Below are positions 9,036 to 10,560 of a stretch of DNA of 64,000 bases, in pieces. The position numbers and the translations under genes are program-made. The notes beneath the pieces are model-generated. The model did not search any database. It was not told where the DNA came from and saw nothing but the letters and a program-made list of their open reading frames with translations. This DNA comes from Escherichia coli. GTDB taxonomy: Bacteria > Pseudomonadota > Gammaproteobacteria > Enterobacterales > Enterobacteriaceae. Numbering within the stretch: the first letter of the stretch is position 1; every line of letters begins with the position of its first letter. The stretch lies in the NCBI RefSeq assembly GCF_024700885.2, contig NZ_CP117016.1; one strand, 5' to 3'.

Positions 9036-9349
9036 ACCAGCCCTTCGATAATACTTTGCTGTACAGCTGCAGGTTGCCAGGCAAGCAGGCATTTACCTAT
9101 TCCGGAGCGATAAAGCGAAAGGCTTTTTCCTTCATGGGAACGCACGCTGATAGTGGCTGATGACTCCACTTTCAAAATGTAATAAGCGCTGCCGTTATCA
9201 ATAATCCCCAGGTGACATAACAGCCCGGTGGTATCCATCAGTTGCGTCAAACGCGGTCGAGCCAGTTCCCGGAGATCCATCTTGCTTAACGCATGACCGG
9301 AAAGCTCCACCAGCCTGGTCCACAAACAAAAATTTTCCTGGTGATCAAG
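9036..9349 (-). pseudogene. rhmR: IclR-family regulator rhmR, central fragment (effector domain), separated from its N-terminus by the IS and fused at its 3' side to rhmT
   Basis: Frame reads HQENFCLWTRLVELSGHALSKMDLRELARPRLTQLMDTTGLLCHLGIIDNGSAYYILKVESSATISV..GIGKCLLAWQP (IclR effector-domain-like) and runs without a stop into the rhmT region; C-terminal ~100 aa of an IclR protein missing. Confidence 0.7.
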
Positions 9350-9500
9350 GGTGACTGCTCCCCGCCCTGTCGGGCGAGGCTTCCCACTTCTTAAGCCGCA
9401 ACCGTCTGTGTGACGGATTTACGCTGGCCTCCATGGGCAGAAACGACGAGTCCCGCCGCTTGTAATTCCAGTATGCCCTTGCGTTTGATGTTGAGCGCCG
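9334..9500 (-). ncRNA. Predicted omega-RNA (reRNA) of TnpB: scaffold overlapping the tnpB 3' end and right end, guide from about 16 nt of flanking rhmR DNA (CTTGATCACCAGGAAA on minus strand)
   Basis: Inferred from the known architecture of IS200/IS605 TnpB systems; right-end hairpin 9360..9379 lies 12 nt past the tnpB stop. 5' boundary not determinable from sequence. Confidence 0.3.
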
Positions 9501-10560
9501 CGTTGATATCGCGGTCATGTTCAACTCCACACTCTGGACACTGCCAGATGCGCTTATGTAATGGCATCTCCGACATTTTGTGACCGCAGCAGTGGCAGGT
9601 CTTCGAACTGGCGAACCATTGATCCAGTTTCACCAGATGCACACCTTTCTCTGTTGCTTTGTATTCCAGTTTTGTGATGAATCCAGACCATCCAGCATCG
9701 CCTATCGCACGAGCCAGATGGTGATTTTTCATCATATTTGCCGTTTTCAATGTCTCGACAATTACCGCTTGGTTTTCGTCAACAATTGCGCGAGATAACT
9801 TGTGCTGGAAATCGGCACGGGCACTGGCTACCCGTTCGTGAACGGCTGCAAGTTGTATTCTGGCTTTGCGCCTGTTTGCGCTCCCTTTTTTCTTACGGGA
9901 CAGTGCTTTCTGCTTCCGGCGCAGGTTGCGACTTGCATTGATTAGGTGGCGGGGACTGGCAATTTTATTGCCGTCCGATTTGATGACAAAATGCGCCAGC
10001 CCCATATCCAGCCCTGTCACATTTGATATCAGTGCGGGCTTTGCCGGCGCTTCCATCCCGTCGTCACAGAGTAACGACGCGTAGTATTTCCCGGTTGCGC
10101 TGCGGCTCAACGTGATACTTTTCAGCATTCCCGTAATTTCACGATGTAAACGCGCTTCAATCGGCAAGATTTTCGGTATTTTTATCGCACCATCAAGGAC
10201 TTTTATGCCAACACAATGATAGCTCGATTGTCTGCCGTGTTTACTTTTAAAGGTTGGTTTACCTGCTTTCAGTTTCGGATTGAAAAAGTTAGAAAAAGCC
10301 ACGTCGAGGTTAATTACCGCCTGCTGCAACGCAATAGAATCATATTCTTTAAGCCATCCATACCGGCGGGATTTCTTCGCCACTGCAAGCAGTGGTTTGA
10401 GGTCTTTACGCGGGTTTAAATTTACGCGGTGCCGCTGGTAAGAATGTTTCTTGATATGCAGAGCTTTGTTGTACGCAAAACGCACTGCACCGAACTGGGC
10501 GTTGATAAATTCAGCCTGTTCTGGTGTCGGGTAGATGCGTACTTTTGTTGCTCTTAACAT
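9391..10560 (-). CDS. tnpB: TnpB (OrfB_IS605; RuvC-like RNA-guided endonuclease)
   Basis: 389-aa ORF; N-terminal MLRATKVRIYPTPEQAEFINAQFGAVRFAYNKAL; RuvC-I GLDMGL, RuvC-II VIVETL, zinc finger CHCCGH..CPECG, RuvC-III HDRDINAALNI all present. Confidence 0.93.
   Translation of the reverse strand: MLRATKVRIYPTPEQAEFINAQFGAVRFAYNKALHIKKHSYQRHRVNLNPRKDLKPLLAVAKKSRRYGWLKEYDSIALQQAVINLDVAFSNFFNPKLKAGKPTFKSKHGRQSSYHCVGIKVLDGAIKIPKILPIEARLHREITGMLKSITLSRSATGKYYASLLCDDGMEAPAKPALISNVTGLDMGLAHFVIKSDGNKIASPRHLINASRNLRRKQKALSRKKKGSANRRKARIQLAAVHERVASARADFQHKLSRAIVDENQAVIVETLKTANMMKNHHLARAIGDAGWSGFITKLEYKATEKGVHLVKLDQWFASSKTCHCCGHKMSEMPLHKRIWQCPECGVEHDRDINAALNIKRKGILELQAAGLVVSAHGGQRKSVTQTVAA

Follow-up and report, generated by a model that had tools for sequence, protein, structure and literature searches.

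How does the insertion sequence (IS) ISEc46, a copy of which interrupts the rhmR gene in the 64-kb stretch of Escherichia coli DNA analyzed here (contig NZ_CP117016.1; hereafter the window), compare with the IS200/IS605-family elements whose workings have been described? The closest described TnpB protein is that of ISDra2 from Deinococcus radiodurans, which acts with an omega RNA (ωRNA; PMC8612924, PMC10097598) and is a full-length homologue of the ISEc46 protein, with the same RuvC triad and zinc cysteines. In ISDra2, as predicted here for ISEc46, the ωRNA is formed by the 3′ end of tnpB and the right end of the element, with the same order and spacing of stems. Unlike ISDra2, whose transposon-adjacent motif (TAM) is TTGAT, ISEc46 has the 4-nt target TTAG, which is also its predicted TAM; its tnpA is divergent from tnpB, its host is enterobacterial, and it is known here from sequence alone. 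IS608 of Helicobacter pylori (PMC5934647, PMC3201880) is like ISEc46 in having a tetranucleotide target, no target duplication and subterminal imperfect hairpins, and in both elements four-base guide sequences 5′ of each hairpin specify the cleavage sites, a role that the ISEc46 tetranucleotides would have by analogy. However, tnpA and tnpB of IS608 are co-directional, and its tetranucleotides differ from those of ISEc46. The same predicted logic applies to ISEc46 and to ISGst2 of Geobacillus stearothermophilus, which encodes TnpB2 (bioRxiv 10.1101/2023.03.14.532601): the TAM is the TnpA target, the guide comes from the right flank, and the scarless donor joint is the target. For ISGst2, with the TAM TTTAT, this function has been demonstrated experimentally, whereas for ISEc46 we infer it from the DNA only.

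The catalogued annotation of ISEc46 names its two proteins only; its ends, TTAG target, predicted ωRNA scaffold and predicted guide are derived here. We read the rhmR copy as an intact, autonomous ISEc46 that unites a catalytically intact TnpB, an ωRNA scaffold and an rhmR-derived guide in a retention logic, and we put the probability of this reading at roughly 0.8.

Ends, target and identity of ISEc46

The ISEc46 copy in the window is complete, 1,763 bp long, and lies in the E. coli gene rhmR, also named yfaX. At identical loci, such as that in NZ_CP023386.1, RefSeq labels the tnpA product "IS200/IS605-like element ISEc46 family transposase" and the tnpB product "RNA-guided endonuclease InsQ/TnpB family protein", and annotates both genes as flanked by two fragments of the IclR-family regulator gene yfaX. 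A megablast search of complete E. coli genomes finds the whole stretch together with its flanks, at 100% identity, in several strains. The uninterrupted K-12 allele reads ...TCTTAGCCTTGATCACC..., with the empty site being TCTTAG followed directly by CCTTGATC. The window reads ...TCTTAG-C-GAAAAACG...GCAGTCAC-CCTTGATCACC..., and the comparison with K-12 leaves a 1-nt ambiguity in the boundary. Five plasmid or chromosomal copies were compared together with about 55 other independent insertions from Photorhabdus, Serratia, Rahnella, Idiomarina, relatives of Halomonas and others. Every one of them ends at the right in ...AGTCAC, beyond which the sequences are unrelated, and begins at the left with C directly after a TTAG; the bases further upstream vary. 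A junction-spanning search agrees, in that matches to the IS alone stop at 9351 and matches to the empty site start at 9350. These other copies and the junction search resolve the ambiguity: ISEc46 occupies 9351..11113, inserted 3′ of TTAG, and comparison of the empty K-12 site with the filled site reveals no target-site duplication. Two alternative boundaries, a start at GAAAAA with TTAGC as the target and an end at ...GTCACC, were rejected because the base after GTCAC varies among copies and the K-12 junction has a single C. The boundaries of the element and its target motif are thus established directly.

The two ends of ISEc46 carry subterminal imperfect palindromes and not terminal inverted repeats. 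At the left end the CCTCGCCC...GGGCGGGG hairpin lies 17 nt from the terminus, and at the right end 9 nt; both are conserved in relatives, with compensatory changes. At the level of sequence, the guide/cleavage rule of IS608 holds for the ISEc46 tetranucleotides, which pair as AAAC/TTAG at the left and GAAG/TCAC at the right. The IS608 pairs, AAAG/TTAC and GAAT/TCAA, share positions 1-3 with these and differ at position 4, in both partners of each pair. With this pairing, the 4-nt target and the position of the right-end terminus are checked independently. The tnpA gene is intact, encoding a 141-residue Y1 (HUH) transposase that contains the HVH motif and scores 141 bits against the NCBIfam model NF033573 transpos_IS200 (cut-off 55). 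A preliminary description of the window had assigned the element to the IS200/IS605 family, and the RefSeq name, the intact Y1 gene, the subterminal hairpins and the absence of a duplication all agree with that assignment. Full-length copies of ISEc46 are present in several hundred E. coli genomes, at varied sites and also on plasmids.

TnpB and the structure at its 3′ end

ISEc46 TnpB exhibits the HTH/WED-REC, RuvC and zinc-ribbon (TNB) architecture, and contains the Pfam domains HTH_OrfB_IS605 (PF12323), OrfB_IS605 (PF01385) and Cas12f1-like_TNB (PF07282). Together with a score of 342 bits against the NCBIfam model NF040570 'guided_TnpB' (cut-off 100), these domains support the 389-residue open reading frame (ORF) that the preliminary description had reported. 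The RuvC and zinc-finger motifs quoted there are likewise all present, at residues 183 (GLDMGL), 266 (VIVETL), 322 (CHCCGH), 341 (CPECG) and 348 (HDRDINAALNI). The best natural PDB-sequence match, found with phmmer, is ISDra2 TnpB (8EXA/8BF8/8H1J; E 3.6e-74, residues 4-380). In this alignment the RuvC triad D185/E269/D351 falls on ISDra2 D191/E278/D361, without substitution of any of the catalytic Asp/Glu residues, and the zinc cysteines C322/C325/C341/C344 fall on C331/C334/C351/C354. The integrity of the proteins is therefore observed directly. Domestication of TnpB into a nuclease-dead, RNA-guided repressor (TldR-like) is documented elsewhere, but it is hardly credible for the rhmR copy, in which neither the RuvC triad nor the zinc finger is damaged and tnpB belongs to a complete mobile element that has tnpA and both ends and occurs at variable insertion sites.

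At the 3′ end of tnpB and the right end of the element there is a conserved, covarying structure with the stem layout of the ISDra2 ωRNA. Its 114-nt core, the predicted ωRNA scaffold, extends over the final ~24 codons of tnpB and its stop codon, and over a non-coding tail of 40 nt. An alignment was made of the final 230 nt from 70 distinct copies; of the 35 pairs that RNAalifold predicts in it, 18 show compensatory changes. The structure named in Table 1, comprising five helices and a pseudoknot, has 34 pairs, and compensatory changes are again present in 18 of them. Standard pairs are formed in 98.1% of the cells of the alignment, compared with 32-55% when the structure is slid along it; the 18 pairs with double changes compare with 5-7 in the slid controls, and the covariation score of 0.333 compares with at most 0.104. 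The observed measures were not attained in any of 500 shuffles. Stem 2 encloses stems 3a and 3b, and in these three helices 98-99.7% of cells are paired, while the loop sequence GGAC of stem 1 is nearly invariant. The fold of minimum free energy (MFE) for the single sequence is the same (-47.8 kcal/mol, z -3.2). The most conserved part is the 40-nt non-coding tail (91% column identity), and conservation at third codon positions is 0.77 inside the overlap of tnpB and scaffold versus 0.68 upstream.

A scan of window positions 8800..11600 with Rfam 15 at E ≤ 1 matched no family. We attribute this to the lack of a matching curated family rather than to an absence of structure, and a covariance model was therefore built here. 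This model, R1, was made only from the 28 most distant relatives, which are at most 76% identical in the scaffold region, and it gives one strong match in the window, full length at 9351..9464 (minus strand), with 115.6 bits and E 8e-24. The covariance-model search that had been proposed in the preliminary description thus comes out empty with Rfam and positive with R1, and the structured RNA anticipated at the 3′ end of tnpB is supported by both the covariation and the model. A second R1 match at 3033..3124 (minus strand) has 17.5 bits and a rough E of 0.037; with a GC content of 0.72 and no likeness to element ends, it looks like a chance match in GC-rich DNA.

The ISEc46 scaffold and the ISDra2 ωRNA share their architecture, as the positions compared in Table 1 illustrate. 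By analogy with ISDra2, a pseudoknot would form just 5′ of the guide between GACU in the stem 1 loop and AGUC at the 3′ terminus of the element. RNAalifold proposed instead a long-range GAC/GUC helix that would join the HDRD codons (about -166) to the 3′ tail; this helix was rejected in favor of the stem 1 loop GACU, the position of which matches that of the ISDra2 pseudoknot. Neither of the two pairings shows covariation.

Could this structure serve only the single-stranded DNA (ssDNA) transposition catalyzed by TnpA, as an extended right end, and not a guide RNA? TnpA has to recognize the right-end hairpin, which is stem 4, and the GAAG/TCAC pairing is a feature at the level of DNA. Furthermore, the top strand has the sequence of the RNA: the G·U pairs fit the sense strand, but this is also the ssDNA strand used in transposition, so neither covariation, nor G·T/G·U pairs, nor any asymmetry between strands can separate an RNA role from a DNA role, and this ambiguity counts against our reading. 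However, stems 1-3 are situated 33-111 nt inside the end, whereas the right-end features that TnpA recognizes in IS608 are a subterminal hairpin, a guide of 4 nt and a cleavage site. In addition, the number, order and spacing of the stems and the position of the pseudoknot match the RNA seen by cryo-electron microscopy (cryo-EM) on the homologous ISDra2 TnpB. In the light of stems that extend beyond the features recognized by TnpA and match the RNA bound by a homologue, a role confined to DNA is very unlikely, and we retain the ωRNA scaffold as the preferred interpretation.

The C-terminal tail of TnpB (...LQAAGLVVSAHGGQRKSVTQTVAA; codons ~367-389, window 9394..9461) is encoded by ωRNA stems 1-3. 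Its 'AAG...AHGG' residues are common to ISDra2 TnpB, where that part of the protein is disordered in the structure, and their conservation may reflect constraint at the level of RNA rather than protein. In relatives of the Idiomarina, Aliidiomarina and Halomonas type, a nested hairpin, GTGGCGC-TTTA-GCGCTT, enlarges the loop of stem 4 (the right-end hairpin) and leaves the foot of this stem and the terminal AGTCAC unchanged (copies L067, L068, L070, L073-L077, L080, L083, L084, L086 and L087; alignment A1, columns 220-239).

The 56-bp gap between tnpA and tnpB and its surroundings (10554..10616) contain five promoter-like sites, compared with 2.2 ± 1.4 in shuffles, all of them matches to consensus only. 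The promoter pair suggested for tnpB in the preliminary description exists, with the -35 hexamer as placed there, but the -10 hexamer is one base away from the 10588..10593 given. Apart from this shift and one of the same size in the guide, every part of that description that could be checked was upheld.

Table 1. Features of the ISEc46 copy in rhmR and of its predicted ωRNA scaffold. ωRNA positions are numbered backwards from the last scaffold base; ISDra2 values are from the published cryo-EM description.
Feature	Window position	Strand	Basis or remark	ISEc46 ωRNA position	ISDra2 ωRNA position
ISEc46	9351..11113	-	minus-strand order left end, tnpA (reversed), tnpB, right end
Target and predicted TAM TTAG (left cleavage site, CL)	11114..11117	-	directly 5′ of left end
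Left-end guide tetranucleotide AAAC	11100..11097	-	5′ of left-end hairpin
Left-end imperfect hairpin CCTCGCCC-AATGC-GGGCGGGG	11096..11076	-	ssDNA fold and conservation in relatives
tnpA (141 aa, Y1/HUH)	10617..11042	+	ORF, divergent from tnpB
tnpA promoter-like pair	TTAACA 10554..10559, TATAAT 10577..10582	+	11/12 consensus, TG extension; face-to-face with tnpB pair
tnpB promoter-like pair	TTGATA 10616..10611, TG-TAAAAT 10594..10589	-	10/12 consensus, 16-nt spacer
tnpB (389 aa)	9391..10560	-	ORF with ATG start, domain searches
RuvC codon D185	10008..10006	-	ISDra2 alignment
RuvC codon E269	9756..9754	-	ISDra2 alignment
RuvC codon D351	9510..9508	-	ISDra2 alignment
Predicted ωRNA scaffold core (114 nt)	9351..9464	-	covariation, covariance model, MFE
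Stem 1	9461..9455 with 9447..9441	-	covarying	-111..-105 with -97..-91	-116..-111 with -91..-86
Proposed pseudoknot 5′ strand GACU	9452..9449	-	stem 1 loop	-102..-99	-105..-103
Stem 2	9437..9433 with 9387..9383	-	3 pairs with compensatory changes	-87..-83 with -37..-33	-84..-81 with -35..-32
Stem 3a	9429..9423 with 9399..9394	-	4 pairs with compensatory changes	-79..-73 with -49..-44	-77..-71 with -48..-42
Hairpin 3b	9416..9402	-	4 pairs with compensatory changes	-66..-52	-70..-49
Right-end guide tetranucleotide GAAG	9383..9380	-	5′ of right-end hairpin
Right-end hairpin (stem 4) CCUCGCCC-GACA-GGGCGGGG	9379..9360	-	fold, conservation, covariation
Stem 4 tetraloop				-21..-18	-20..-17
Element 3′ terminus AGUCAC	9351..9356	-	near-invariant in 70 copies
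Proposed pseudoknot 3′ strand AGUC	9356..9353	-	element 3′ terminus	-6..-3	-5..-3
Right cleavage motif TCAC	9354..9351	-	last four ISEc46 bases
Predicted 16-nt guide CCUUGAUCACCAGGAA (DNA CCTTGATCACCAGGAA)	9350..9335	-	first 16 rhmR bases past right end

A predicted rhmR-derived guide and the proposed retention of the element

If ISEc46 works like its described relatives, what would its TnpB cut? ISEc46 inserted 3′ of TTAG in rhmR, and its last ~114 nt (the 3′ end of tnpB, the 40-nt tail and the right-end hairpin) would form the ωRNA scaffold, to which transcription running past the right end would add the guide CCUUGAUCACCAGGAA from the rhmR flank. The preliminary description was right to read the guide from this flank, but the sequence that it gave, CTTGATCACCAGGAAA (9349..9334), is shifted by one base from the correct CCTTGATCACCAGGAA. 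The empty K-12 rhmR allele reads TTAG followed directly by CCTTGATCACCAGGAA. The earlier proposal that the empty donor site is the target is therefore upheld at the level of sequence, the uninterrupted allele having the predicted TAM and the guide match side by side. Within the window the guide match occurs once, preceded by TCAC and not by TTAG, so TnpB would be expected to leave the occupied site uncut. The TnpB-ωRNA complex would recognize TTAG plus the guide sequence only where the element is missing, either after scarless excision by TnpA or in an uninterrupted rhmR allele, and cutting of the empty allele would favor recombinational re-installation of ISEc46, that is, retention or homing. 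The use of TTAG as a TAM by TnpB, and not by TnpA alone, is inferred, as are the expression and processing of the ωRNA and its cleavage and homing activity. A double role of the TnpA target as TnpB TAM, targeting of the donor joint, and retention by recombination after its cleavage are established for ISDra2 and the ISGst elements (bioRxiv 10.1101/2023.03.14.532601; PMC8612924), and the logic of donor-joint targeting has been extended to a plasmid gene drive (bioRxiv 10.1101/2025.02.20.638934).

Besides the strand ambiguity discussed above, several points weigh against this reading. Across the 70 copies, 97% of cells retain the pseudoknot pairs but without compensatory change, and the pseudoknot is accordingly proposed from analogy with ISDra2. 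No dedicated promoter or terminator of the ωRNA was identified, there being weak internal matches to consensus only. In the literature searched, ISEc46 appears only in lists of mobile elements in resistance-genomics papers, and no paper was found on a TnpB with a TTAG TAM. The IS608 TnpB, with its motifs intact, was inactive in a plasmid interference assay (bioRxiv 10.1101/2023.03.14.532601), and intact motifs therefore do not guarantee activity. Downstream of the guide, no intrinsic terminator was found.

The rhm locus has suffered a second lesion. Compared with K-12, the window lacks 1,727 bp (NZ_LR881938.1 2343482..2345208), with the junction at 9024..9035 and an overlap of ~12 bp. This deletion takes the 3′ part of rhmR, all of rhmD, encoding L-rhamnonate dehydratase, and the 5′ part of rhmT (yfaV), and it creates a chimeric 394-residue 'MFS transporter' ORF at 7908..9092. 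Through the insertion and the deletion together, the rhm operon has been inactivated twice in this strain. The junction between rhmR and ISEc46 was found by junction search in 63 of 5,426 complete E. coli genomes. The rhmR flank is present in 3,978 of those genomes, which places the insertion in about 1.6% of flank carriers and makes the allele with TTAG plus guide, the predicted cleavable one, the common form, present in almost all the other carriers. Another search matched 448 genomes, but 84% of its query is accounted for by the IS itself, and this count was therefore not used for the rhmR insertion.

These observations bear on the possibility that the module is intact but silent, with scarce ωRNA or a weak nuclease, and is simply a vertically inherited insertion in a decayed operon. 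A specific ωRNA promoter was not found, the IS608 TnpB shows how a protein with intact motifs can be inactive in interference assays, the deletion of rhmD leaves a locus under no selection for restoration, and a junction common to 63 genomes fits plain vertical inheritance. However, no damage is seen in the ORF, the catalytic residues, the scaffold or the ends, compensatory evolution across genera implies recent function in the lineage, and the hundreds of E. coli genomes with full-length copies carry them at differing sites and on plasmids. We consider a silent module unlikely, and favor a functional ISEc46 with retention logic.

The rhmR insertion could also be viewed as an allele-specific gene drive or barrier, in which DNA that comes in or recombines and bears the empty rhmR allele is cut, and recombination is biased to the insertion. 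This extension is speculative and we regard it as improbable. If it were true, the decayed rhm locus would be helped to persist.

Relatives of ISEc46 and significance

Relatives that carry tnpB without tnpA are found on E. coli and Klebsiella plasmids of ~50-370 kb, mostly ~90-105 kb. They are 79-99% identical over query positions 511-1762, and some adjoin antirestriction or HicA toxin genes (e.g., NZ_LR890538.1, NZ_CP058654.1, NZ_CP063350.1, NZ_CP085065.1 and CP058065.1; hits H76-H110). They may be non-autonomous elements, or gene-drive or defense modules of the kind described in bioRxiv 10.1101/2025.02.20.638934. Photorhabdus species (L015-L039 and others) have many copies per genome, for example at least nine in P. 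thracensis. Most of these copies have a left end ~90-150 nt upstream of tnpB and lack tnpA, and each follows TTAG at a different site; Photorhabdus represents a large expansion of non-autonomous tnpB elements. In a relative from Idiomarina loihiensis (L081, 613..746), the left-end hairpin (GGGCGGGGATATA) is followed directly by a second left-end start, which suggests that one element has inserted, in tandem or nested fashion, at another's left end.

Some records require care. The TnpB of a contig binned as Collinsella sp. (L008; JAIJJM010000608.1, from a metagenome-assembled genome, MAG) is 99% identical to that of ISEc46, and its flanks are those of the E. coli chromosomal copies L004 and L005; the contig is almost certainly misbinned E. 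coli DNA. A Candidatus Paceibacterota MAG with an 88% identical TnpB (L010) is probably misbinned enterobacterial DNA. Two PLSDB records labeled 'plasmid unnamed1', NZ_CP141089.1 (4.94 Mb) and NZ_CP134663.1 (4.90 Mb), are E. coli replicons of chromosome size, with ISEc46 at a second chromosomal site that has the left flank ...CATTGCTTAG and the right flank ATGATGACAGG....

ISEc46, its family and the TnpB mechanism are already known, and what is derived here is new detail on a known thing. The system fits a known kind of selfish element and is in that sense ordinary, and it has little importance beyond annotation, being a named IS whose proteins are already labeled as transposase and RNA-guided endonuclease. 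To that annotation are added the exact ends of the element, the TTAG target and predicted TAM, a covariation-supported ωRNA scaffold and an exact predicted guide. As a 4-nt TAM, TTAG would not have been reported before for a TnpB close in architecture to that of ISDra2. The covariance model is usable for the enterobacterial and gammaproteobacterial TnpB clade, the ωRNAs of which are missed by Rfam, and ISEc46 TnpB could be tried as a compact editor with a short predicted TAM.

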